64,000 nucleotides of DNA from a virus (taxonomy: Duplodnaviria; Caudoviricetes). The translations under genes and the position numbers were made by a program. Under the pieces are notes generated by a model that saw only the letters and a program-made list of their open reading frames with translations, did no database searches and was not told the origin of the DNA. Position 1 is the first letter of the stretch, and each line of letters begins with the position of its first letter. Location of the stretch: IMG/VR virus record IMGVR_UViG_3300017700_000721, positions 54,082-118,081 of that record; one strand, 5' to 3'. Shown one piece after another: positions 2,273-37,886 of the stretch.

Positions 2273-4516
2273 TCAGGCTGCCAGCAGCATCTTGTCATAC
2301 TCGCCCGCTGCGAGCTTGGCCAGGTCAATCTCCTTTTGGAGGCCCCAGACATCGCCCACCTTCGGGGCGACAGTGAGTTGAACCTGCCAGGTCTTGACCT
2401 CGAACTCCATGGCCTTCTTGATGATCGGAGCTACTTCCTGAACCAGCTCGTTCCGCACGAGGAACGCAAGCTCGTCATGGATCTGCATGGCGAAGGCCAC
2501 GTCACGCCATTTGTAGCCGTGAAGCTTGAGAGCCTTGTCCACCTTCACCATCGCAATGCGCGTCACCTCAGCGGCGGTTCCCTGAATAGCGGTGTTCACC
2601 GCGGACCGATTGGCGAAAGCATGGATCTTCGGGTCGGGGTTATCATAGAACGACTTCAGGCTCCGCTTCCGACCGAAGAATGTGGTTGTGTAGCCGTTCT
2701 TCCTGGCAAAAACATGGACCTTACCCATCCATCCGAATAGAACAGGGTGACCACGGACAAACCCGTCGTAGACCTGCTCGGCCGCGGCTCTGGGAATGTC
2801 AGCCTTAATAGCCAGAGTGTAGGCCGTTGCCCCGTAGAATGTTGCAAAGTTGAGCACCTTGCCCACGTCGCGCTTTCTCTTCTTCTCTTCCTTCGACAAG
2901 GCGTGGAATGTGTCAATCGGAATGCCATAAGCAGCGGCTGCCGTGAGAGAGTGGAGGTCATCTCCCTTGGCCAGAGCTCTGAGCCACCTAGGCTCGCCCG
3001 ACATATTGGCACCAATGACCAATTCCTGGCGGTCGTAGTCGAAGGAGAGTAGTTTGTAGCCCTTCGGAGCACGGAAGGCTTGGCGCACTGATGGGATCAT
3101 CAGCACGCCCTTCTGTACTCGTCGCGTGGTGTCAATGTTGACTGACTCACACTGAGCTGGGCAGCCTACACACGTCTCGCGGATGCAAACAATAGGCTCG
3201 CGGCCTTCTTCGTCCTCATCACCCTCTCTAGGGATGACATAAGGAAGGCTACGAACAACAGTCTGCCAATCAGCAGGAGCTTGAGGCGCTTCGCCAGGCT
3301 CTAGCCCTGCTCTCAGATCGATGAGGATGTCCGAGTCGTCAACCTGCGATATGTAATCGGCAGAGTCAGGCGTACCCTTCAAATCTACGGCCATCACTTC
3401 GCGAGCTTCGCCGTTAGAGACGGCCTGAATGTTCACTCCTGTGGCGCCGTCGACGTCCGGATCACCGCCTGGGGCAGAGAACCTGAAAGTCGGAGCTGCA
3501 AAGGTGTTGAAGTTGAACCTAGGTTTGATCTCTCGATCGGAGAGTGCCTGTAGCTTATTGAAGTAGGAACTACGGGCCTTCACAATCTTCTTGTAAGCGA
3601 TGATCGTCTCTACGATCGGATTGGCTCGGGCGAGCTTCTCCAGCGCCTCTTCCTTGGTAACGTGGATTGGGTTCTTGCCCTTGGTCTTGCCTGGCGAAGG
3701 CAAGCCGCCCCGCTCGAACAGAGCGTCGCCGAGCTGCTTAGGGCTGTTGATCTCGAAGGTGTAGCCGATCACCCGGAATATCTGCTCCCGCATGGTAGCA
3801 GCCCGGGTCTCAAGCATCGCCATCTGATTATCGATGTACTCCCGGTTGAGTTCCATCCCGCCGTTGTGTTCCATCCGGCGGACAATGTCGATGAGCAGGG
3901 TGTCAATCTGCACAGCCATCGGGTTCTCAGTCGCAACGTAGGCGTAGTGATCCCACATCTGCATGCCTACGTCGGCGTCAGCACAGGCGTAGTCGGTGCA
4001 TCGCTCCGGTGATTTGGTGGTAATATCCAGGCGACCTGCTTTGATCTCCTCGGGGGTGAAGAGGTCCTCGAACTTGGTCATGTCGATGCCCAAGTCTTCA
4101 TGGGCCACCGTCTTCAGACCAATCTTCTTCCGATCAGGGTCAGCTAGGTAGACAAGCTCAAGCGCATCGTTGAACTTGAAGTCAGGTTTCCACTTCAACC
4201 CCTTCTTGACCACCTGCACCTGCAGGATGTTCAAGTCATACTTGGCGTTGTAGAAGATGGGGGTGTGAGACTCCATCTTCTCTTCCATGAGCTCCCAGAC
4301 AGGCTCAAACGGTAGGTTCGCCTCGGGGTTCACTCGATGGTTAAATGGGACATAAAGGGCTGAGCCCTTCGCAAGAGACACTGACATTCCGGCAATGCCT
4401 GCGCGGCGAGTGTCAAGACTCTTTGCCTCAGTATCCATCCCCATCTGGTTCTTGGGGTGGACTGTGGACAGATATTGCTTCACGTGGTCGAGTGACCTAG
4501 CTAACTCGTACGCCAT
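2273..4516 (-). CDS. polA: Replicative family A DNA polymerase with 3'-5' exonuclease
   Basis: ExoI DTE, ExoII NAKYD, ExoIII YACAD; motif A DYDRQE, motif B RDVGKVLNFATFYG, RSAVNTAIQGTAA, motif C QIHDE. Confidence 0.95.
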   Translation of the reverse strand: MAYELARSLDHVKQYLSTVHPKNQMGMDTEAKSLDTRRAGIAGMSVSLAKGSALYVPFNHRVNPEANLPFEPVWELMEEKMESHTPIFYNAKYDLNILQVQVVKKGLKWKPDFKFNDALELVYLADPDRKKIGLKTVAHEDLGIDMTKFEDLFTPEEIKAGRLDITTKSPERCTDYACADADVGMQMWDHYAYVATENPMAVQIDTLLIDIVRRMEHNGGMELNREYIDNQMAMLETRAATMREQIFRVIGYTFEINSPKQLGDALFERGGLPSPGKTKGKNPIHVTKEEALEKLARANPIVETIIAYKKIVKARSSYFNKLQALSDREIKPRFNFNTFAAPTFRFSAPGGDPDVDGATGVNIQAVSNGEAREVMAVDLKGTPDSADYISQVDDSDILIDLRAGLEPGEAPQAPADWQTVVRSLPYVIPREGDEDEEGREPIVCIRETCVGCPAQCESVNIDTTRRVQKGVLMIPSVRQAFRAPKGYKLLSFDYDRQELVIGANMSGEPRWLRALAKGDDLHSLTAAAAYGIPIDTFHALSKEEKKRKRDVGKVLNFATFYGATAYTLAIKADIPRAAAEQVYDGFVRGHPVLFGWMGKVHVFARKNGYTTTFFGRKRSLKSFYDNPDPKIHAFANRSAVNTAIQGTAAEVTRIAMVKVDKALKLHGYKWRDVAFAMQIHDELAFLVRNELVQEVAPIIKKAMEFEVKTWQVQLTVAPKVGDVWGLQKEIDLAKLAAGEYDKMLLAA

Positions 4517-26063: not shown

Positions 26064-27434
26064 TTAGCCGCTAGCCTTGCCGATGTTGCGGAAGACCACG
26101 TTCTTCTTCGGAGCGAAGACGATCGGGGTTCCATACAGCAGCTGCATCCAGCGGATAGACGGGCTCACGATGGCGAGCTGCATCTTGATCATGGGCGACA
26201 GCTGCTTGAAAGTCAGCGACTGCTGGGTGAGGTCGAGCATCAGGCCGATGAAGGTGTTCGGACGATACACGTTCTGATCGTTCCAGACCGTGCTGTTCAC
26301 GTACACGCCACCGGACTTCGCGCGCGGGACGACGTAGCCGATGAAGTAGGCCACCGCTCCGTTCTTCTCGGTACGATAGACCTTGTAGGCCGTCGCCGGG
26401 AAGGTACCGCCCTGGTCCGCGATCGTCAGCGGAACCATCTGGGTCGTGGCAACCGTGACGGCCGAGCTGAGGGCCGTGGCCGCCGACTCGCCGTACTGGT
26501 TGACCGCGCTCACCGCGTACTTGTAGTCGCCGGCGTCCGTGGTCTTGAACTTCGGCGAGGCCGTTCCGGTCGCCGCAGCCGGCGTGACGGTCGGGGTGTT
26601 CGGCGCCTTGGTCGAGTTGGCCGACAGGGGCGGGGTCGTGCCGGTCTTCACGAACGTGTCCGGCTCGAAGCCAACCAGGCCCGAAGAGGTCTGGACGCTC
26701 GTGACGGGCGTGCCCACCGGGCCAACCTGACCAGCGGAGAAGCGCTGATACTGGTTGTAGTAGTTCGAGAAGTCCGAGAAGACCTTGTTGTTCGAGAAGA
26801 GCTTCATCGGCACGCCGAAGTTCTCGGCGACGAGGTAGGCTCCGAGCTCAACCTGCTCCTTGGTGAGCGGGGCGCCTTCGCAGTCGATGACGTGGCCTGC
26901 GCCACCTTCGATCTGCTTGGTGAGGCTGTTCCACTCGACCGGGACAGCATCGGCGTCGCCGTAGTAGAGGCCGTTGTTCGCCTTGCCCATCAGCCAGAGG
27001 GCGCCATTCGACGTCTCCTGGGCGATGATGTCGGCCGGCACGGTGCGCACGAGGGTCGCGGGGTGGTTGACGGCTCGGGTCGTGCCGAGGTACTTCACGA
27101 GCTGGTTCGTGCGCTCGTAAGTGCTGTCCTCTTCCTGCGGAAGCTCGCCGGACTGGGTGAAGCCGCCGCCCTGGCCGCCGTACTCGAGCAGGCGGTTGTA
27201 TTCCTCGACGGTGGAATAGGCGTCCGTCTTCGGGATCATGTTCCACAGCTTGATGTTGGTCGCGCTGTAGGTGAGCAGCTTGAGCGTGGCTTCCAGGCTC
27301 TCGACTCGCAGGGCATCGAAGCCGGTGCCGGTCGCAGGCATCTGATAGCCGATGTCGAGCGCCTTACGCAGCTCGCCGAGGTCAGCAAGCGAGGAAACCC
27401 CGAAGCCTTCCTGCAGATTGATCTGACCTTCCAT
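26064..27434 (-). CDS. major capsid protein (HK97 fold, SPO1/Twort-like type)
   Basis: ELRKAL.IGY...ALRVESLEATLKLLT, STVEEY, VKYLG, LYYGDA; very high GC3. Confidence 0.9.
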   Translation of the reverse strand: MEGQINLQEGFGVSSLADLGELRKALDIGYQMPATGTGFDALRVESLEATLKLLTYSATNIKLWNMIPKTDAYSTVEEYNRLLEYGGQGGGFTQSGELPQEEDSTYERTNQLVKYLGTTRAVNHPATLVRTVPADIIAQETSNGALWLMGKANNGLYYGDADAVPVEWNSLTKQIEGGAGHVIDCEGAPLTKEQVELGAYLVAENFGVPMKLFSNNKVFSDFSNYYNQYQRFSAGQVGPVGTPVTSVQTSSGLVGFEPDTFVKTGTTPPLSANSTKAPNTPTVTPAAATGTASPKFKTTDAGDYKYAVSAVNQYGESAATALSSAVTVATTQMVPLTIADQGGTFPATAYKVYRTEKNGAVAYFIGYVVPRAKSGGVYVNSTVWNDQNVYRPNTFIGLMLDLTQQSLTFKQLSPMIKMQLAIVSPSIRWMQLLYGTPIVFAPKKNVVFRNIGKASG

Positions 27435-28131: not shown

Positions 28132-28935
28132 TTAGCTCCTCGAGTTCGACTTGTAAAGGGTATATTTCACGACCTTACTCGCAAGGTCATAAGACCAGGC
28201 AGGCTTCTGCTTCAAGACGAAGAGAATGGCTTCGTCGTTGGTAAGCGGCCGGGACGCGGTGTCGCTCTTGGCCAGGATCTCTTGCTGAGCCTTGACCACT
28301 TCCTCTGCCACGTGCTTGGCAAAGTCTGCCGGCAAGCCCTCCGTCCCAGCCAGAGCATTGTAGGCTGCGAGGCTCTTGCACATCTTGACGAGGGTAAGCG
28401 GGTGCACCGGAGCGGCTGTCACGGCGACCCCGTGGACGAAGGCCTTCACGATGTTGCCGTTGCGCGTGTCGCGGGCGATCTTGCCGTCGAGTGACAGGCC
28501 CAGGCTTCCCTGGTCACCGTTGACCGACTTCATGATGTTACGGATCTCTACCGCCTTCGGGACGTGCTTGTAAAATTCCCCTTCCACGAAGACGGAGGCA
28601 GAGTCCGGCGCGTTTGGAAAGTCCGACTTGCGGAGGGCTTCCAGCTTGGCGGGGGTGATGATCGAAATTCCCGTCAGGAAACCCACCTGGTCGGCAGGCT
28701 GACGGGAATGGTCCCAATTGACGAAGCCACGCTGGGCGGCGTACGACAGGTCGAGGGACTTGCGCAGGATTGTGTCACCCTGCTGATCGCGGTTCTCGTC
28801 GGAAGCAATCCCCTGAAACCGCCACGGACCTTCATCGCCTTCAGGCGCGATGGCCTTGAAGAGATCGGCCTTAAAGAGGGCTTCCGAGGGACCTTCACCT
28901 AGGCTCGGGTCGGTCGAGATTTCCGATGTGAACAT
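28132..28935 (-). CDS. prohead protease
   Basis: FQGIAS...DQQGD, VNWDH, GLSLDG, VAVT..PV. Confidence 0.85.
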   Translation of the reverse strand: MFTSEISTDPSLGEGPSEALFKADLFKAIAPEGDEGPWRFQGIASDENRDQQGDTILRKSLDLSYAAQRGFVNWDHSRQPADQVGFLTGISIITPAKLEALRKSDFPNAPDSASVFVEGEFYKHVPKAVEIRNIMKSVNGDQGSLGLSLDGKIARDTRNGNIVKAFVHGVAVTAAPVHPLTLVKMCKSLAAYNALAGTEGLPADFAKHVAEEVVKAQQEILAKSDTASRPLTNDEAILFVLKQKPAWSYDLASKVVKYTLYKSNSRS

Positions 28936-28987: not shown

Positions 28988-29971
28988 TTAACATGGCGAG
29001 TCTGGACCGTAGATCTTCCGGATGGCGGATATTATCAGGAGCTCGTGGGCCGGTATTTCCTCGCCGTGACCATGACTTTTCAGCATGTCGGCAGAGGTTG
29101 TCAGCGGCGTGATTGAGGATTGCCTCTTGAGGGACTTCTCCATCCTCTCTTCCATCGCTGAGGCCAGAGCTCTGTCAACCCGCGGTTCGTTCTGGCTCGC
29201 CATGTACAGGATACAATAGCAATGAGGGTGCACGGGCCCAATCGTGAATTGCCATGCGTAGGCCGGGACTCCCCAATTGCTGTTTCCGATCACGTCGGAA
29301 AGGCGGTACATCTTCGGTGAGCCGTCTGAGTTCGTGTGGAGGTCCAGGCAATAGTCACACGCGGCTGGCCTGGGCACCTTGTACACTAGCTCGTCTTCGT
29401 CCTTGTCTACGATTTGTCCTTGCTGGAAGTAGCTGTGAAGCTCGGTCTGCAAAAGACGGTCGATCTGGCTCGTAAAGGACTCTGTTTCGCCTGTAAGGGC
29501 GGACACTAGCTCGGTCAGCGCAGAGTTGCGGGCAACAGATCGGGCAGCAGCGTCTACAAATGTCCCTTTGACTAACACTGAACGCCAATCACGGTCAGCG
29601 TTTGCTATAGCCAGTCTGTATTTGGATTGAACAGCGTCCGTGCGGCTTTCCAGCCAACGCTCGGTGTCGTTGCGCATCTGCGCAAGATGAGCCTTCTCTC
29701 GATCGTTCAGCTGGACGTTGTTATTGTAAACCCACTGGGCGATCTGATCCTTGCTCATGGTCTTCAGGGCGTTAGGGCCCAGAAGAGAGGCTACCTTTCC
29801 CGCCATGTAACTCTGCTCGAGCACTGTCATCCGAGACGTTGAGACTGCTGACGAGATGGCGGTCGGGATTGTCTGACCAAGGCCACGGCCAATTGTGTAG
29901 GCCGAGAAGGCGCTTCCTAGCGCCCTCAAGACCGACATGATGCGACCCTCGGTTTCCCGGCCGAGCAGCAT
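28988..29971 (-). CDS. MuF/SPP1 gp7-like head morphogenesis protein
   Basis: RLLQTE, ACDYC, GPVHPHCYC. Confidence 0.75.
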   Translation of the reverse strand: MLLGRETEGRIMSVLRALGSAFSAYTIGRGLGQTIPTAISSAVSTSRMTVLEQSYMAGKVASLLGPNALKTMSKDQIAQWVYNNNVQLNDREKAHLAQMRNDTERWLESRTDAVQSKYRLAIANADRDWRSVLVKGTFVDAAARSVARNSALTELVSALTGETESFTSQIDRLLQTELHSYFQQGQIVDKDEDELVYKVPRPAACDYCLDLHTNSDGSPKMYRLSDVIGNSNWGVPAYAWQFTIGPVHPHCYCILYMASQNEPRVDRALASAMEERMEKSLKRQSSITPLTTSADMLKSHGHGEEIPAHELLIISAIRKIYGPDSPC

Positions 29972-30307: not shown

Positions 30308-30474
30308 GTGTCGGACTCCAGCTCAGGATCTTCAATAACTTCTTCCAGTCTTCCGCCCATAGCAAGATAGAGCTCTTTCGCCTTCCTCCAAAAGGCATCC
30401 GTCCACTTCGGACGTTCTAAACCCGCCTTCTTCAAGGCTAAGTTCCACAGTTGAGGGCTTCTAATCCAGCTCAC
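30304..30474 (-). CDS. small hypothetical protein (56 aa)
   Basis: Not in the ORF track. GTG start, MSWIRSPQLWNLALKKAG...KELYLAMGG..., fills the gap with 4-nt overlaps on both sides. Confidence 0.6.
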   Translation of the reverse strand: MSWIRSPQLWNLALKKAGLERPKWTDAFWRKAKELYLAMGGRLEEVIEDPELESDT

Positions 30475-30950
30475 GTCTTCTTCGTCAGCCTCACACGCTG
30501 CTCGCGAGTCACCGAGCCACGCTTCAGGATCTTGCTGAGGACCTGCTCGTATTTGTTGTCGGTGTTGGCCACGATGCCCAGGTCGATGCAGCTGATCATA
30601 ACCTCCTCGCCATCTCCTGGAGGAGAGTCAGGGGTGTCAACCTTGACCGCCCGGCAATAGACCTGCGGCGCTCGAACAACCGGCATATTGGTCACGTGCC
30701 AGATACCTTCGAACCCAGAGGCTTGGGTCTCGAAGACGGTGCCCACTCGACCCAGCCAATCGAGGTCAAGGTCGTTACCTTCGATCTTCTCGTTGTAAGC
30801 TGAGTTGTACTGCCGGACGTCGCCGAACTGCTGCTCTTCCCCACGTAGGTTCCGGGCGTAGTCATTGGGATTGATGGTGTCGGGGTCGATTGAACGATAA
30901 TCGTGCTTGTTGAACCCCATCGTAGCGGGATCCCAGTTCTTTGACATCAA
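30471..30950 (-). CDS. hypothetical protein downstream of the second PolA
   Basis: Strong RBS GGAGG; 159 aa. Confidence 0.7.
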   Translation of the reverse strand: MMSKNWDPATMGFNKHDYRSIDPDTINPNDYARNLRGEEQQFGDVRQYNSAYNEKIEGNDLDLDWLGRVGTVFETQASGFEGIWHVTNMPVVRAPQVYCRAVKVDTPDSPPGDGEEVMISCIDLGIVANTDNKYEQVLSKILKRGSVTREQRVRLTKKT

Positions 30951-31021: not shown

Positions 31022-33640
31022 TTACTTGGAAATGGCTTTCCAGTTAAGACCGGCTCTGGTGTCCACCTTGAAGGGCAGAAAACCCGGAAGCGGCTGATGG
31101 AACTTCTCCAAGCTGATCTCTCGGACCTTCTCCACGAGTTCGTTCTTCACCACAAAGATGAGCTCGTCATGCATCTGCAGACCCAGGCGAACGTCATCAA
31201 AGGAATAATCCTTCCTGAGGGTGTTGAAGATCTGTGCCTGCCTAATCTTCAGGATCTCGGCGGCGGTGCCAGCGTTGTGATGGTGCCAGGCAGTCTTCCG
31301 GAAACCGTGAAGAGCAGGACCGCGAGCCGTCTTGATCCCCGGTAGGTACCTGGTCCGGCCGAAGCGGGTTGAGACAGATCCCGTCTTGGCGGCTGCTGAG
31401 AGAATGTTCTCACGATACTGGTCAGCCAGAGAGGCACGGGCCTTGTATCCAGCAATGATCTTCGCGGCCTCTGGCATGGCGATGCCGAGACGTTTAGCCA
31501 GGATAAACTCCTGCATGAGGTACAACAAGGCGAAGTTGATCGTCTTGCCAGCCTGGCGCTTGTCTGGGTTATGAAGGTCAACGCCGGGCGCGGCAGCCAT
31601 TACCTCGTCGTACATCTGGATGTGAAAGTCTACCCCGTTGACGAAAGAGGCTGACAGCACTGGGTCACCTGACAGGCTGGCCCAGGTGACGTACTCGGCC
31701 TGGCCCAGGTCGTTAGACAGAAGGGTGTAACCCGAGGGGGCTTCGATCGTCTCCCGAATAGGGACAACCCGGTTCTGTAGGTTGGGGCTGTCCGCAGTGT
31801 ACCGACCATGAGGTTGACCGTACTGGTTCCAGTTCGTCTGGACGGAGCCGGCGTTGGCGTAAGGCTCCCATTCCTTGAGCTGAGATAGAGTCGACTGGGA
31901 TCCGCGAGCCTCCATGATCGCACCCGCGATCGGATAGCCCATCGCGTCCAGCGCCTGGAGGGTGTCGTCGTCCGTCGAGGCCTTCCCTCCCTTGCTGATG
32001 CGCTGGGTTGGGAGGTTCATCACCTCGAACAGGATGCGAACGCAGTCGCCGGGCGCGTGGGGACGGAACTCCTCTCCGGCAAGCTCGTGACAACGAGCTA
32101 CCAGCCGATCCGTCTCTTTCTGCTGAGCCTCCAGGTTCCGCTGCCAGGTCTCCTTGTTGACGACAAGGGCCGTTCGGTTCATCTCCTCCGTCATCGGCTC
32201 GAGGTTGTGCTCGATCTTCGACGAGTTCGACCCGGCTGGCAAGATGACGTCGAACTTCTCGATGCGGATTTCCTGCATGGTCTCATTATACTCTGTTTTG
32301 GACTCGGTGTCAAGTCCTAATTTACCTTCACCCGCCCTGCGGATCTGGGTCGGATCTTCCACTGTCCTGTAGGATCCGTCCTCGCGGACTACCTTCACGA
32401 TGCCGTTCTCAGTCCGCTTGACTTTCGCCGGATGCCACTGACCCTTCGAGTCACAAATCTCGACTTCAGAGTCGTCCGGGTACGCACCGGTTACAGTTCC
32501 AACTGTCAACAACGTATCCTCTCGAGGCGGGCGGCCCTTGAAAGCCTGAGCGTAGAGTTCCTCGAAGCTAGGCAGCTTGACCTTTGCTCCGTCTTCCTGT
32601 ATATACTGAATAGTAAGCTTGAGGGCCTCGCGAGCTTCGTCGCGCATCCCTTCCCAACGAGCCTCAACCATTGCAGCTAACTCAAAAGATGCCTCCGCAA
32701 TCGCTTCCATTCGTTGCCATTTCGCGTTGTCGCGAATGGCTCTGTTGGCTGCGTCCGGAGACAGGTCTGAGACCTCGACGTACATCTCGCCCCAGAGGGC
32801 TGTGCGCTCCTCGTCTTTCACCTTAGCCCTGTGACGGGCCTCAATCTCTTCAGTGCTCTTGTCTCCGGAGACAAGCGTCTGTAGGGCCTCCGGTGTGTAC
32901 TTCCGGGCCTTCTCGGCGATGGGCTCAAACCTTGAGGGGAGGGCATAAACCTGGGTTTGCAGGACCAGGCTAGCTAACGTCTCAGCTTCTTTCAGATCCT
33001 GAAAGGGCGAGGGGTCACTGTCTAGTGGGAACACCTCGTCAACCCAGAAGACCTTGCAAAGAAGGGCTGGGACTTGCATAGCCATTGCCGCGAAGCAGGT
33101 TGCATTGCCCGAAAGAGCCCAGAATGTCTGGGTCCCCTTCACCGCAATAAGTGACGGTACTCGCATTTTCCCGCTGAGGGCGTCGCTAAGCTCAGCAGCG
33201 TCAAACCCACCGTAGGTGATAGCGTGCGTAGGTACAGTCGCTTCGTCGTAATCCTGACCAATGTCACCTTTTCGCATTAGTGACGGGTCTTGGTTCAGAC
33301 GGCCGTGATCCCACGTGATCTGGGCTATCACGCCCTTCACGTACTGATCAGAGATCTGCTTCAGGTTGTTGGGAGCGTCGTGTTCTTCCCGGCGAGCGTA
33401 ATCCCTCAGAGCCTGCTCGTAAGCCCCTTCGATCCTCTCTTCGTGTAATGACTTCCTCATGAGGGACCCTTCGATGGCTCCCTCGTCCGGATCTGGAGGA
33501 GCTTCGTGGATGTCCCTCTTGATCAACTCCAGAACCATCGCCACCGTAGCTTTAAGGTCAAGCCTGGCTTGCTTTTCGAGCTCGTCTAGCGACTTGTAAG
33601 GAAGCTTACGACGCTTCACCTTTAGCTTGTTGCGGGCCAA
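31022..33640 (-). CDS. second family A DNA polymerase, exonuclease-less, fused to a 454-aa N-terminal region
   Basis: GRYTADSPNLQN, motif A DLGQAE, motif B RQAGKTINFALLY, TRFGRTR, motif C QMHDE; TTG start with AGGAG RBS. Confidence 0.9.
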   Translation of the reverse strand: MARNKLKVKRRKLPYKSLDELEKQARLDLKATVAMVLELIKRDIHEAPPDPDEGAIEGSLMRKSLHEERIEGAYEQALRDYARREEHDAPNNLKQISDQYVKGVIAQITWDHGRLNQDPSLMRKGDIGQDYDEATVPTHAITYGGFDAAELSDALSGKMRVPSLIAVKGTQTFWALSGNATCFAAMAMQVPALLCKVFWVDEVFPLDSDPSPFQDLKEAETLASLVLQTQVYALPSRFEPIAEKARKYTPEALQTLVSGDKSTEEIEARHRAKVKDEERTALWGEMYVEVSDLSPDAANRAIRDNAKWQRMEAIAEASFELAAMVEARWEGMRDEAREALKLTIQYIQEDGAKVKLPSFEELYAQAFKGRPPREDTLLTVGTVTGAYPDDSEVEICDSKGQWHPAKVKRTENGIVKVVREDGSYRTVEDPTQIRRAGEGKLGLDTESKTEYNETMQEIRIEKFDVILPAGSNSSKIEHNLEPMTEEMNRTALVVNKETWQRNLEAQQKETDRLVARCHELAGEEFRPHAPGDCVRILFEVMNLPTQRISKGGKASTDDDTLQALDAMGYPIAGAIMEARGSQSTLSQLKEWEPYANAGSVQTNWNQYGQPHGRYTADSPNLQNRVVPIRETIEAPSGYTLLSNDLGQAEYVTWASLSGDPVLSASFVNGVDFHIQMYDEVMAAAPGVDLHNPDKRQAGKTINFALLYLMQEFILAKRLGIAMPEAAKIIAGYKARASLADQYRENILSAAAKTGSVSTRFGRTRYLPGIKTARGPALHGFRKTAWHHHNAGTAAEILKIRQAQIFNTLRKDYSFDDVRLGLQMHDELIFVVKNELVEKVREISLEKFHQPLPGFLPFKVDTRAGLNWKAISK
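32285..32313 (-). promoter_or_regulatory. internal sigma70-type promoter within the second PolA gene
   Basis: Exact TTGACA-ccgagtccaaaacagag-TATAAT, then 6 nt to an in-frame ATG at 32278 (Met455). Confidence 0.8.
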
Positions 33641-33652
33641 GTGCTTCTCCTG

Positions 33653-35131
33653 TTAGGAGTCCAGCTCCTGGGTGATGTCTACGTCGCGACCGTCTGGATC
33701 GTCGGTGGCCTCGGTCGGCTCTTCAAGGTTCTGGTCCTGCTTCGCCTGGAGCTCTTCCGCTTCCATCTTGTCCAACCTAGCAGTATACAACGGATCAAGG
33801 ATGATGTCTCCCGCCTTCAGCGGCGGCTCGTTGCGGTCTGCGCGAATGTCATTCACTGTCCGGAACGATTTGACCTCGGAGTTGATGATCTCCGAGTCAA
33901 TCTTCCGATCCTCGTCAAGACCCAGGAATTCCAGACGATATCGAGGATCGATCTTCTGGATCAGATTGGTGTTGAGGTTGTTCGCCAGAAATGTCAGCAA
34001 CGGGCGTAGGCCACGCTGCTTTGAGACGGCCTGCTTCTGAGGCCCTGAGCTGTCGAAGGTGACGGCTGCGCCAGACTGGCCAATCTGCCAGTTGATCTCC
34101 GTAGGGTCAATCTGATAAACCCCGCAGGCCTGTTTGACCAGGAAATCAAACATCATGGAGTATTCCATGTCACGGTTTGAGCGGTCAAGCTCCTTCCAAT
34201 CAACCTCACCATCCTTGCCAATCTTCAGCACCGGAGGGTTCCAGGCGTGAGCTGCGTTGCGGATAGCCTGCCGGAAATCACGCTTGAAGACTTGGAACTG
34301 GGTGTCATCAACGTCACCCTTCACGATCATTACACCTTTGGCAGTTCCGCCCTGGGTCAGCTGACCGGCGTTGAACTTGTCGGCGTTCAGCATTGTCGTG
34401 ATGGTTCGAACCAGGATCTCAAGTTCAGAGTACCCGTAGCCCATCATCTGGATGTTGGTCTGCGGGTTACGCACACCAAAGATCATCTCCTTGCGGGAAT
34501 ACTCTGCTACAATACGCTCGTGGAGCACCTGCACGTACCAAGGGTCATCAGACAGAGGATCCGACGCCTTCGAGAGCGATGCCTTCAGCTTACGAATGGT
34601 ACCAGCATCTACGGCCACAACGTAGGAAGGCAGACCGTTGCGGCGACTCACAATCTCGGCGTTGGCCTGGTCAAGCTCCAAACTGTCTCGCATGAACTGT
34701 CGGGTAAAGTCCTCCAGCGAGGCTTCACCGTAGCCCACGGTTCCCATCGTGTAGATCCAATCACGGAGGGCAAGGGTCTTGGCGTTGTCCTTCTTGGCGG
34801 CGTTGTCATCGCTGACGATCTCGTACCCCAGAGTGTAGCGCTGGGTCCGGGGGGTGCAGAAAGCAGCCACCTGGTTCAGCCGGGTCTGGATGATGGACCC
34901 AATGATGGGGTTCTTGGCCATCGCGCGCAGGTCGTAGGTCGACAGTGCAGACTGGGGGCGCTGCATCCACTCCGGACCCATGAACATGGTCAGCGGATCG
35001 TAGAACGTTGTCTGAGGTTCATGTGCCCGATCACGGATCTGCTCGATCGCCTTCTCGATCCGTTCCTCTACGATGGCGGCACCGAAGGAGTCCCCGATGA
35101 TCGTCCTTACGCGCTGACCTAGCGAGGGCAT
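33653..35131 (-). CDS. portal protein
   Basis: Follows TerL; IIQTRLNQVAAF, VDAGTI, RNP...GYGYSELE, QGGTAKG, CGVYQIDPTEIN. Confidence 0.9.
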   Translation of the reverse strand: MPSLGQRVRTIIGDSFGAAIVEERIEKAIEQIRDRAHEPQTTFYDPLTMFMGPEWMQRPQSALSTYDLRAMAKNPIIGSIIQTRLNQVAAFCTPRTQRYTLGYEIVSDDNAAKKDNAKTLALRDWIYTMGTVGYGEASLEDFTRQFMRDSLELDQANAEIVSRRNGLPSYVVAVDAGTIRKLKASLSKASDPLSDDPWYVQVLHERIVAEYSRKEMIFGVRNPQTNIQMMGYGYSELEILVRTITTMLNADKFNAGQLTQGGTAKGVMIVKGDVDDTQFQVFKRDFRQAIRNAAHAWNPPVLKIGKDGEVDWKELDRSNRDMEYSMMFDFLVKQACGVYQIDPTEINWQIGQSGAAVTFDSSGPQKQAVSKQRGLRPLLTFLANNLNTNLIQKIDPRYRLEFLGLDEDRKIDSEIINSEVKSFRTVNDIRADRNEPPLKAGDIILDPLYTARLDKMEAEELQAKQDQNLEEPTEATDDPDGRDVDITQELDS

Positions 35132-35168: not shown

Positions 35169-36659
35169 TTAGCCAAAGTCAGCGGAGAAGGTTGTGGCAC
35201 GCGAAGCTACGAGCGCATGCCAGATGGCCATAACCACGTCGTCGTGGGTGGTCTCGTTGCCAATCCTACCGTGTCGCTGCTGAATACCGTTGAACTCCGT
35301 AACGATGTAGTCAGTCATGATACGGTCTTGGTCGGTCTTGTACGGGAACCTGAACTGTAGGTTCTCAAACAGCGGGCGGATCGAGAGAAGACCTGTCTCC
35401 ATCGACCTCTTGTTCTGACCCGTCACGGTGTGGCCTCGAACAGGCATCCGACTCTTGTTCTTGAAGTGCTCCCGGTAAAGGCCTTGGAACATGTTGTCTT
35501 CAAGAAAGCCCAGGGTTACTTGGTACATTTGGCAGTAGTATTCAATCTGGTTGATCTGCTCCTGCATGAACTGAGGGCGGGCTCGCCAATAGTTCAGAAG
35601 TGTGTAAAGGTTCGCGCTCTTGTCGTACTCCAAAGCTACGATAGCGGTCCAGTCGCCGTCGTTAGATCCCGGTACTGAAAAGTCCACCCCCAGGAAGACA
35701 GGGTTTCCACCTGTATAGTTCCTGGAGTAGGATAGCTGGCGGTCAAACAGTGGCTCGAGAAGGCTCGTCGGGAAGATCGTGGTCTCGTCCGAGAGCGGCT
35801 TGTTCATATACTCCTTGGAGAAGGAGAGACTGCCGACCTTCCGTCGGATAGCCATCAGATCTTCTGCAGAGTAACGATCGGCCCACAGTGGAATGGTCAT
35901 CGCCTCGTCGACGAAAGCGGCGAGCTTTGCTCCCGTGTACTCACCTCCCTGGAGCTGCTCGTGATACATATCGTCGGTATCTTGGGCGGTGCCCACCGTA
36001 ACAATCTGCGACTTGAACCCTTGAAGGCGGACCTTGGCGGTGCCCTTGTCCTTCATGGGGAAGACCACTTCGTTGAAGCGAGTCTTCATCATCTTCCGCA
36101 CGTCAGCTGACCAGCTGTTCTTTTCGTTCAGCACGTCGTCCAGTAGGATCAGCTGCGGATGGCGGCCACGCAAAGGCGACATGAAACCCTTCGCCTTGAT
36201 GACCTTCTGGTTCCCCAGCTGCATCTCGGTTCGGGAGTCAGGGCCGTGCGATCGTCCTTTCGGGAGAAGGGGCCAAAGAGACTCCCGATTGTTCATCAGG
36301 ATCTTCATCTTGTCCAGGTTCTCGACGGCGGTCGGCTGGTCAGGACCAAGGATCAAGATGTCTTGTACCCAAGGATCGTACTTCGCCTTCCAGAGGGCAT
36401 AGGCTCTGATCAGCGAGTGACTCTTCCCGTGATCTCGAGGGGCCATCTCTATCACGTCATCGCCCGTCTTCAGGTGATCCCACCAGATCTTATGCTGAGG
36501 ACCAATCTCAAAGCCCAGCTCCACCTTCTGGAAGACTAGGAAGTTGGTCCTACACAGCTGCCGGACAGCGTGTTTAATCCCTGCGGCGTTACCGCCCAGG
36601 AAGGCTCCGGCTGCTTTCGACTGGCTAGTGCCGGGCCGAGGGAGGTGGTAAAAGGTCAT
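35169..36659 (-). CDS. terL: terminase large subunit
   Basis: APRDHGKS, LRGRHPQLILLDD, LGVDFS, GDWTA, HDDVVMA. Confidence 0.95.
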   Translation of the reverse strand: MTFYHLPRPGTSQSKAAGAFLGGNAAGIKHAVRQLCRTNFLVFQKVELGFEIGPQHKIWWDHLKTGDDVIEMAPRDHGKSHSLIRAYALWKAKYDPWVQDILILGPDQPTAVENLDKMKILMNNRESLWPLLPKGRSHGPDSRTEMQLGNQKVIKAKGFMSPLRGRHPQLILLDDVLNEKNSWSADVRKMMKTRFNEVVFPMKDKGTAKVRLQGFKSQIVTVGTAQDTDDMYHEQLQGGEYTGAKLAAFVDEAMTIPLWADRYSAEDLMAIRRKVGSLSFSKEYMNKPLSDETTIFPTSLLEPLFDRQLSYSRNYTGGNPVFLGVDFSVPGSNDGDWTAIVALEYDKSANLYTLLNYWRARPQFMQEQINQIEYYCQMYQVTLGFLEDNMFQGLYREHFKNKSRMPVRGHTVTGQNKRSMETGLLSIRPLFENLQFRFPYKTDQDRIMTDYIVTEFNGIQQRHGRIGNETTHDDVVMAIWHALVASRATTFSADFG

Positions 36660-37263
36660 TGACCCCGATCACAATGTCACCGTTAATGATGAGGTCCGTG
36701 AGGACATCCGAAGCGTCTTGGGTGAGGCCGATCCCGTTCTGTTCCAGCTTCTTGATGTCCTCTTCCATCTTGTCCACTGCGCTGCCTGGGACCTTCGCCA
36801 GCATCGCGTGCAGCTTCGTCAACATGTCGTTCTGCACAACCATCTCTTGACGAACGCGCTTGTCCGAGTAGGCCGGGTTGACCTTCTGCTTCTCTTTCTC
36901 GTTCCTCACGAGGGTGTCAACCCTCTGCTTCTGCGTGTATATGTTCTGTGACATCTCTCGGATGATGTCGATGGTGACCGTACCGCCCATCTTCTCGATC
37001 ATCTCCTCGGCCCAGGAGAGATTGACCTGAACCTTGGTCTCCTTTAGGTTCCGGAAGATGGTTGGGGCTGAGATCCGGTATTCCTGACCCTGCTCAATCA
37101 GCCACTTCTCAATGTCTCGGTAAGGAATTGCCTGCAGACGCATGCTAATGATAACGTCGCAGAATGGGGACTGACGGATGGCACAGGCTTTGTTAAGCCT
37201 CGACCGAACCCTACCAATCAACCCGTGAGGATCCGGGAGAACTTGACGCTTTACGGTTGCCAT
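36625..37263 (-). CDS. putative terminase small subunit
   Basis: HTH-like N-terminus plus coiled coil, upstream of TerL. Start moved to ATG 37263 (TAATG overlap). Confidence 0.55.
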   Translation of the reverse strand: MATVKRQVLPDPHGLIGRVRSRLNKACAIRQSPFCDVIISMRLQAIPYRDIEKWLIEQGQEYRISAPTIFRNLKETKVQVNLSWAEEMIEKMGGTVTIDIIREMSQNIYTQKQRVDTLVRNEKEKQKVNPAYSDKRVRQEMVVQNDMLTKLHAMLAKVPGSAVDKMEEDIKKLEQNGIGLTQDASDVLTDLIINGDIVIGVNDLLPPPSARH

Positions 37264-37886
37264 TAGGCAGCCATCCTTCGCGGCTGAGCAGCGAGGGCTT
37301 CGAGCCTTTCCTGCTTCTTGGTTTGGAGGGTAAGGTGCTTGTTCATATGTGCGAGTGAGACCGAGGAAACACGCACGTAATAAACGAACGGCGACTTTGA
37401 CCAATCAGCCTTCAATTCGTAGGGTCGAGCTGTCGCCTTGAGTCCTAGCTCTGTCATGAGGGCGTAAACCTCGCCTGCCAGTTCTCGGTGGACTGTGGCG
37501 TAGTAAACCAGGGTTGACTTGTTCTCCTTCGGCTTGGAGACAGACCCGTCCGAGTCCATCAATCCTTCGAGGAGCTTCCACTGGAACTCGGGAGCCCAAT
37601 CCAGCCAGCCGACAGGTAGGCGCTTGTTCGTGGCGTTGGTGTGGATGTCCAGGCCTGCCGATATGCAATCAGCCGTCATCTCTCGGGTCGAGGTATAAAC
37701 TAGATGTCCAGACTTCTGAGGATTAAACTTCCGGAAGGTTCCGTACTCTTCCAGAGCGGCAGCCACCTTCGGGTAGTCATCAGCGTTACAAATCCACCTG
37801 AGCTGCTCGAGACCGTGGTTGTTAACGTACCAACCATCTCCAATCCAGTAACCCAACAGGTAAGCGAGAGGCAAGGATCCAATCAT
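37263..37886 (-). CDS. free-standing LAGLIDADG homing endonuclease (intein/DOD-type)
   Basis: AYLLGYWIGDG, KRLP, LLEGLMDSDGS. Confidence 0.85.
   Translation of the reverse strand: MIGSLPLAYLLGYWIGDGWYVNNHGLEQLRWICNADDYPKVAAALEEYGTFRKFNPQKSGHLVYTSTREMTADCISAGLDIHTNATNKRLPVGWLDWAPEFQWKLLEGLMDSDGSVSKPKENKSTLVYYATVHRELAGEVYALMTELGLKATARPYELKADWSKSPFVYYVRVSSVSLAHMNKHLTLQTKKQERLEALAAQPRRMAA

Follow-up and report, generated by a model that had tools for sequence, protein, structure and literature searches.

A 64,000-nt window (bases 54082-118081) of the 118,081-bp IMG/VR record IMGVR_UViG_3300017700_000721, from an uncultured member of the Caudoviricetes, encodes a second family A DNA polymerase, here called P0001, directly behind its portal gene. 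On the evidence of its sequence, P0001 appears to be a catalytically competent, specialised member of an uncharacterised phage clade and not a decaying copy. All coordinates are those of the window, in which the long open reading frames (ORFs) lie almost entirely on the minus strand; every gene, domain and motif located below is on that strand. The P0001 gene (31022..33640) specifies 872 amino acids and begins with a TTG codon, with a GGAG Shine-Dalgarno sequence, 12 nt past the portal stop. The polymerase itself is confined to a 418-residue frame from M455 to K872 (31022..32278), which contains family A thumb, palm and fingers without an exonuclease domain and corresponds to the stand-alone proteins of 400-430 residues that make up most of the clade. 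The replicative PolA of the phage, a protein of 747 residues with an exonuclease region, is encoded at 2273..4516.

P0001 residues 502-868 matched the Pfam family DNA_pol_A (PF00476) with 200.7 bits, against a cut-off of 34.3, and residues 475-868 were aligned to the E. coli Klenow fragment with HMMER at an expectation value (E) of 7e-39. Klenow numbering is the chain index plus 323, and the coordinates of the P0001 motifs were confirmed by translation. The protein was nearer to bacterial Pol I models than to the replicative PolA of the same phage. It scored below the cut-offs of the Pol I equivalogs NF004397 (218.9 vs 720 bits) and TIGR00593 (191.7 vs 600 bits), matching model positions 488-887 only, and below that of DpoZ, the aminoadenine-incorporating phage PolA (NF038380; 33.4 bits vs 500). 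A sequence-only reading of this DNA had claimed that the second PolA retains its catalytic and deoxynucleoside triphosphate (dNTP) binding residues, and in the alignment to Klenow all of them found their counterparts: R668 is R613 in P0001, D705 is D644, E710 is E649, R754 is R695, K758 is K699, F762 is F703 and Y766 is Y707. Motif A, DLGQAE (31694..31711), supplies the catalytic D644 and the steric-gate E649. Motif B, the O-helix RQAGKTINFALLYL (31517..31558), keeps R754, K758, F762 and Y766, with L in place of G767, and motif C, HDE (31163..31171), keeps H881, D882 and E883 as H824, D825 and E826. In family A enzymes, retention of the equivalents of E710 and F762 predicts that the product is DNA and not RNA.

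The changes listed in the same reading were likewise borne out against Klenow and by translation, namely R841 to K782, N845 to H786, Q849 to A790 and G767 to L708, together with the motif exchanges TGR to HGR, FNLSSTKQL to FRPHAPGDC and KLKSTY to STLSQL; its observation that the replicative PolA keeps RSAVNTAIQG, INSPKQL and FYG was correct as well. Beyond these, P0001 has R835 changed to A776, R836 to L777, D827 to G768, S769 to Q710 and K635 to S583, and a six-residue loop that bears R682 in Klenow is deleted. The clade signature KTAWHHHNAGTAAE (31256..31297) stands in place of Klenow R841-x3-N845-x3-Q849-G, the template-side reader helix. At the base of the thumb, FRPHAPGDC (32042..32068; FRPN..DC in the clade consensus) replaces FNLSSTKQL, which includes the duplex-backbone contacts N579 and S582. 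STLSQL (31877..31894) replaces KLKSTY, with K635 changed to S and S638 kept as S586. In HGR (31802..31810) the T has become H, and the R that follows, R613, is the primer-side minor-groove reader R668, which is kept and invariant. R631, N675, N678 and T609 are also kept, amounting to about half of the backbone contacts, and the thumb aligns without a break to Klenow 528-640 and is thus of full length.

The functions reported for these residues show a pattern in what was replaced. R841, S769 and F771 take part in strand displacement and contact the single-stranded template, which is held by R835, R836 and R841; in the terminal pair, N845 tests the shape, Q849 forms a bond with the template base and R668 with the primer base (PMC10520511, PMC3347538). 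Contacts to the backbone are made by N579, S582, K635, R631, N675, N678, T609, E611, D827 and R835, and selectivity is reduced in the mutants N845A, R841A, R835L and R836A (PMC10520511, PMC3347538). The minor-groove bonds needed by most polymerases are reported to be those to the primer strand (PMC3347538). As judged from the alignment, the replacements in P0001 fall mainly on residues reported to hold the template strand, and the residues for the primer side, the dNTP, the metals and the steric gate appear intact. To describe the DNA-contact residues as lost, as was done from the sequence alone, therefore overstates the case. The changes of R841 to K and N845 to H exchange one hydrogen-bond donor for another, and the helix is rebuilt to an invariant K-T-A/L-W-H-H-H-N-A-G, so that it seems to have been retooled rather than eroded. 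Of the minor-groove readers, the one on the primer side, R668, is intact. The possibility that the histidine triad binds zinc together with the invariant Cys533 was also considered; it was dropped, as a third or fourth conserved ligand was lacking.

The altered residues are shared by a large group of proteins. P0002, a close relative found by word-indexed search (73% identical), has the same residue at every variant position. When the N-terminal 470 residues were used as query in an exhaustive HMMER search, 36 proteins were recovered, approximately 16 of them fusions of 800-917 residues; the polymerase part recovered more than 100 clusters (defined at 90% identity), whose identities were 35-59% and whose length was mostly 400-430 residues. 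There was a clear score gap between clade members (E <= 1e-58) and ordinary PolAs (E >= 1e-39). In 17 aligned fusions with 34-43% identity, K782, T783, W785, H786, H787, H788, N789, G791 and T792 were invariant, as were D644, G646, Q647, R613, R695, K699, Y707, D825 and E826. Scans with the clade signature located 11 viral and 21 metagenome loci (designated L with a number below), and over these the signature reads KT[AL]WHH[HK]NAGTAAE, D[LWM]GxAEYV, SQLxxW, FRPN..DC and INFAL[LC]Y[LK]M. Ordinary PolAs recovered in the same scans (L023, L025, L027-29; P0143, P0144) retained the canonical residues, and a genome scan for KT[AL]WHHHN found an ordinary Bacteroidia PolA only. A literature search found no account of this clade, of a polymerase gene that follows a portal gene or of tailed phages with a DNA polymerase in the virion.

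FastTree was applied to 122 polymerase domains, with ordinary PolAs as the root; the clade came out as monophyletic (113 rows, support 99). Its basal lineages were polymerase-only, and 15 of 16 fusions fell within one subclade of 22 rows (support 86). It should be noted that FastTree is a quick method, that the rooting depends on the outgroup and that some short rows may be artefacts of gene calls or contig ends. The ratio of nonsynonymous to synonymous substitution rates (dN/dS) for six unsaturated pairs was 0.05-0.12 in the polymerase part and 0.13-0.21 in the N-terminal domain; these pairs come from the closer relatives L006-L009, as the window gene is saturated at synonymous sites with respect to its relatives. 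Since purifying selection is strong, the catalytic residues are invariant or nearly so and the signature is fixed across the clade, decay is excluded as an origin of the unusual residues. The largest polymerase-only subclade, with proteins of 402 residues (P0121, P0151, P0155), occurs on contigs of 57-360 kb, and two cluster members carry the NCBI label of Candidatus Sulfotelmatobacter (Acidobacteriota) metagenome-assembled genomes; such labels could reflect prophages or phages binned wrongly, and they hint at a phylum in which hosts might be sought.

P0001 also carries a promoter within its own coding sequence. A perfect TTGACA-17-TATAAT sequence lies in the linker codons (32285..32313, minus strand), with the ATG of M455 7 nt past the -10 hexamer. 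This ATG is without a Shine-Dalgarno sequence, and a transcript from the internal promoter would be a putative leaderless mRNA. Of 10 viral loci, 8 have the 12/12 promoter in this position, and it was also found upstream of the polymerase in four metagenome loci, L017, L018, L019 and L021. There are 18 perfect 12/12 promoters in the genome, all on the coding strand, and the internal one is the only example in the virion-gene block of about 35 kb. Other perfect promoters in the window are at 1419, 5420, 42556, 43073, 46133, 49699 and 52122. At several promoters (43073 and 46133 in the window, 20040 in the genome) an ATG is located 5-7 nt past the -10 hexamer, which suggests that leaderless mRNAs may be a regular feature of this phage.

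In L012, L018 and L019 the polymerase is a separate gene of 419-422 codons that starts at the equivalent of M455, and the portal-coupled gene upstream of it encodes 171-192 residues, with the N-terminal motif and helices only. The P0001 locus would thus yield an 872-residue form and probably a 418-residue form. Because the basal lineages are polymerase-only and the fusions are confined to one subclade, the stand-alone polymerase with its own promoter is presumed to be the ancestral unit. The 872-residue fusion accordingly appears to be derived, with the upstream gene read through into the polymerase and the promoter surviving within the codons. The arrangement resembles known nested-promoter genes, such as that for the Tn5/IS50 transposase and its inhibitor, in that a promoter within the coding sequence gives an N-terminally shortened product. 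It differs from them in that the short product here would be the ancestral stand-alone enzyme and the long product a later fusion.

The N-terminal region of P0001 stands in the place occupied by the exonuclease domain in other PolAs. Its 470 residues matched nothing in Pfam (E up to 10), NCBIfam or PHROGs, and no exonuclease family was found; P0001 likewise had no match to the Phage_Mu_F domain (PF04233). AlphaFold2 modelling of full-length P0001 from a two-sequence alignment gave a mean predicted local distance difference test (pLDDT) value of 37. A model of the N-terminal domain from a 36-sequence alignment had a pLDDT of 87 and a predicted template modelling score of 0.72. In this model, residues from approximately 95 to 215 (32996..33358) have a predicted fold that Foldseek places near ParB and sulfiredoxin. 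Matches to Noc, ParB and sulfiredoxin had E values of 8e-4 to 3e-2, those to Noc and ParB spanning 8e-4 to 1e-2, and probabilities of 0.8-1.0, with low template modelling (TM) scores over the whole model; the sulfiredoxin matches had TM scores of about 0.5 by target length, and phage ParB/Srx proteins were matched in BFVD. The tentative likeness to ParB, Noc and sulfiredoxin lies in the predicted fold, with no family match at the level of sequence, and the order of domains in P0001, with long helical hairpins, differs from that of ParB. Nearer to the linker, residues from approximately 385 to 441 (32318..32488) are predicted to form a small beta-barrel of the Tudor/PWWP/SH3-like type. By Foldseek and VIA-align on the model, the whole barrel was covered by Tudor, PWWP and chromo domains with Z scores of 7.5-8.2 and root mean square deviations of 1.2-2.7 A. 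Besides the Tudor-like barrel, a wide VIA-align search gave generic long-helix matches only. Among viral and metagenome contigs, none was found that showed the genomic surroundings of stand-alone N-domain proteins (P0023 and others).

When the neighbourhood of P0001 was examined by PHROGs and Pfam searches, it proved to be a block of head genes. The portal gene (33653..35131) lies directly upstream, preceded by the gene for the large terminase subunit (TerL; 35169..36659). Directly downstream is g159 (30471..30950), which encodes a conserved small protein without a family, with a terminator-like hairpin at 30400-30414. Then follow g327 (28988..29971), the prohead protease gene (28132..28935) and the gene for a major capsid protein (MCP) of the SPO1/Herelleviridae type (26064..27434). 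The g327 protein is conserved in all relatives and belongs to no sequence family. An Atlas model of it resembles Mu F and minor capsid proteins with TM scores of 0.5-0.59, which makes it a candidate for the minor head protein that associates with the portal in this group. The portal and capsid proteins are 34-40% identical to their counterparts in SPO1-like Herelleviridae. In one of the phages compared, Bacillus phage YungSlug (MT416612.2), the portal gene is followed by the protease gene, one further gene and the capsid gene; since the portal and protease genes are contiguous there, the polymerase gene, g159, g111 and g327 are four extra genes in the phage studied here. YungSlug also encodes, directly upstream of its portal gene (L004:1878-4487), a protein of 869 residues with a PARP catalytic domain (Pfam, 1.2e-14), to which the N-domain of P0001 has no sequence similarity.

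The order TerL-portal-[N-protein]-Pol-g159-(g111)-g327-protease-g214-MCP, whole or in part, was seen in every related contig with flanking sequence (L005-L009, L011 and L012), and L018 and L019 have the portal and polymerase genes adjacent. Proteins common to the syntenic contigs are only 40-60% identical. The portal stop codon and the start of the gene after it overlap in L006, L007, L011 and L018. The two ends of the record carry an exact 123-bp repeat (G000:C1:1-123 and 117959-118081), which is direct and not inverted. To our knowledge 123 bp is not among the common assembler k-mer sizes, and the repeat may be a real short terminal repeat.

Overall, these observations are best explained by a competent accessory family A polymerase without proofreading, belonging to this clade and tied to maturation or packaging, a composite account that we put forward tentatively and would place somewhat short of an even chance. 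Its enzyme-level part is probable. The biological role, synthesis during maturation or packaging, is suggested by gene position and predicted folds and is possible but doubtful. The enzyme would make DNA and not RNA. It would check the template strand less strictly and might differ in strand displacement; with no exonuclease domain it would be error-tolerant, and it would serve as an accessory enzyme and not as the replicase. A free polymerase of 418 residues would be produced from its own promoter, in the same class as the other genes with consensus promoters. Late in infection the 872-residue form would be made together with the portal, and the ParB/Tudor-like module, binding DNA or protein, would tether the polymerase. 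The task of the enzyme might then be error-tolerant gap-filling or strand-displacement synthesis on phage DNA at maturation or packaging, as at ends, nicks or terminal repeats. This role is preferred because it brings together gene position, translational coupling, folds like those of DNA-binding proteins and the kind of residue that was replaced.

Several observations weigh against a role in maturation or packaging, or limit how far it can be generalised. The evidence for the packaging link consists of gene position, translational coupling and fold resemblance, and the Foldseek matches of the ParB-like domain, with E about 1e-3, are moderate. This domain has no GxxR motif for nucleotide binding, the sequence in P0001 being G178-N-A-T and the positions after the Gly varying over the clade; the N-domain is for this reason expected to be a binding module and not an enzyme. 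Much of the clade lacks the fusion, which is derived, and the core function of the polymerase therefore cannot lie in tethering. Herelleviridae with similar head modules do without this polymerase gene, and among 50,697 cultured-phage records there was no clade member, the best identity being about 31%. The largest polymerase-only subclade (P0121-like) has KTLWSHVNAG, so that the histidine triad is not universal; the core of the wider clade, as read from the sequences, would be K, T, W, the middle H, N and AG, with the triad limited to the subclade of this phage. The gene neighbourhood of the P0121-like subclade was not found, viral scans giving known loci only. Finally, the 123-bp repeat may be an assembly overlap.

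Other explanations must be set beside this one. The closest competitor is a general polymerase for damage tolerance or modified DNA, an early or middle cassette that lodged behind the portal gene by historical accident and has no tie to packaging. The consensus promoter of P0001 belongs to the class found at replication-region genes, and a thymidylate-synthase-like enzyme is encoded in the genome; other phages have extra exonuclease-less PolAs, divPolA1 and divPolA2 (PMC11348598). Tolerance of lesions or modified bases is plausible from the sequence, since a proofreading exonuclease domain is missing and the template-checking residues N845, R841, R835 and R836 are replaced. However, it is the minor groove that the changed residues read, and most known base modifications project into the major groove. 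Moreover, the post-portal position has been kept down to 40-60% identity and the upstream gene has been fused repeatedly or durably, which is more than would be expected of a passenger. On balance we regard a cassette without a tie to packaging as unlikely, if only a little more so than synthesis at maturation or packaging. Delivery in the capsid is somewhat less likely again. Here the long form would be packed by means of its N-domain and ejected with the genome to act on incoming DNA, for example in gap filling, with the short form made later. The gene does lie between those for the portal and for the Mu F-like candidate, protease and capsid proteins. Its start is coupled to the portal stop, the long form has extra binding modules, and two temporal routes of expression are predicted. 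Precedents in kind exist in the virion RNA polymerases (vRNAPs) of N4-like phages and in the PARP-domain protein beside the YungSlug portal. But the basal members and many others are polymerase-only, with the fusion a derived state; the portal-coupled protein is a separate, short product in L012, L018 and L019; and P0001 has neither the Mu F domain nor a known capsid-targeting signal. The more specific proposal that the 872-residue form is set beside the portal in the procapsid and injected with the genome, with a template grip suited to unusual virion DNA (gapped, nicked or partly single-stranded), is improbable. If true, this would be the first tailed phage known to bring its own DNA polymerase into the cell.

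The two remaining explanations concern the enzyme itself. The sequence-only reading had suggested an altered substrate. That template or substrate is handled differently may fairly be inferred, given that the changes are fixed and under purifying selection; the protein priming included in that suggestion finds no support, as the repeats at the record ends are direct and no signature of a terminal protein was seen. We also know of no family A enzyme that primes on protein. Non-standard templating in a wider sense, which would include template-independent tailing and RNA-templated DNA synthesis, draws on the fact that the replaced residues are those that hold and check the template strand. Nevertheless, the retention of R668, N675, N678 and R631 and of the full-length thumb fits an ordinary primer-template duplex, and such activities seem very unlikely. 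Least credible of all, and scarcely worth entertaining, is a decaying or non-catalytic duplicate of the replicative PolA. Replacement of canonical DNA-contact residues and a location outside the replication module could be read in its favour. The relaxed selection that it implies, and that had been raised as a possibility from the sequence alone, is refuted by the low dN/dS of the polymerase part across homologues. The catalytic residues are invariant or nearly so, more than 100 clusters fall in one clade, and a duplicate would not be expected to lie closer to models of bacterial Pol I than to the PolA of the same phage, as P0001 does.

Some further features of these loci were recorded. A LAGLIDADG homing-endonuclease gene (LAGLIDADG_3, 2.9e-13; 37263-37886, minus strand) separates g202 from g259 a short way upstream of the large terminase gene. 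As g202 and g259 are adjacent without it in the relatives L007, L011 and L018, it looks like a recent mobile insertion. In L018, g159 is replaced after the polymerase gene by an ORF of 509 codons that is open at the contig end (L018:7285-8811); by eye, its product seems to begin as an NAD-dependent epimerase/dehydratase and to continue as a methyltransferase-like region. The portal gene of L013 is in two overlapping frames (724-1647 and 1538-2185; L013:724-2185), from either a frameshift or a sequencing error. The 7.5-kb contig L010 has the C-terminus of the polymerase first and a divergent N-domain last, and looks like an assembly chimera or a circular mis-join.

Among characterised enzymes, those closest to P0001 are the polymerase domains of bacterial Pol I (Klenow, Taq and Bst). 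P0001 is like them over thumb, palm and fingers (Klenow 528-925), with about 30% identity and no large insertions, and motifs A, B and C, R668, N675, N678 and R631 are kept. It differs in having neither the 5' nuclease nor the 3'-5' exonuclease, with no vestige of either, in the rebuilt R841/N845/Q849 helix, in the replacement of R835, R836, D827, S769, G767, K635 and N579, and in the deletion of the R682 loop. Other parallels are divPolA1 and divPolA2, extra exonuclease-less PolAs with an intact palm in phages that have a regular replicase, for which a non-replicative role has been proposed; divPolA1 has a truncated thumb and is located among replication genes, and divPolA2 has no recognisable thumb and a variable neighbourhood (PMC11348598). 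P0001 resembles them as a second exonuclease-less family A polymerase in a phage with a replicase. By contrast, the clade described here has a complete thumb, is recognised by Pfam, is located behind the portal gene and has its own promoter. With the vRNAPs of N4-like phages it shares the idea of a polymerase made with the structural genes, the long form here coming directly after the portal. Those enzymes, however, are RNA polymerases for which packaging and ejection are proven, whereas for P0001 packaging is hypothetical and the predicted product is DNA.

R841, N845 and Q849 have been regarded as part of the conserved core of family A, and a natural clade of more than 100 clusters replaces the helix that bears them. 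The clade is thus a natural experiment on the template-side contacts that set fidelity, strand displacement and template tolerance, and its polymerase, at about 47 kDa, is a compact candidate enzyme for biotechnology. For the biology of these phages, a polymerase gene between those for the portal and the capsid proteins points to a previously undescribed link of DNA synthesis with head assembly or genome delivery.

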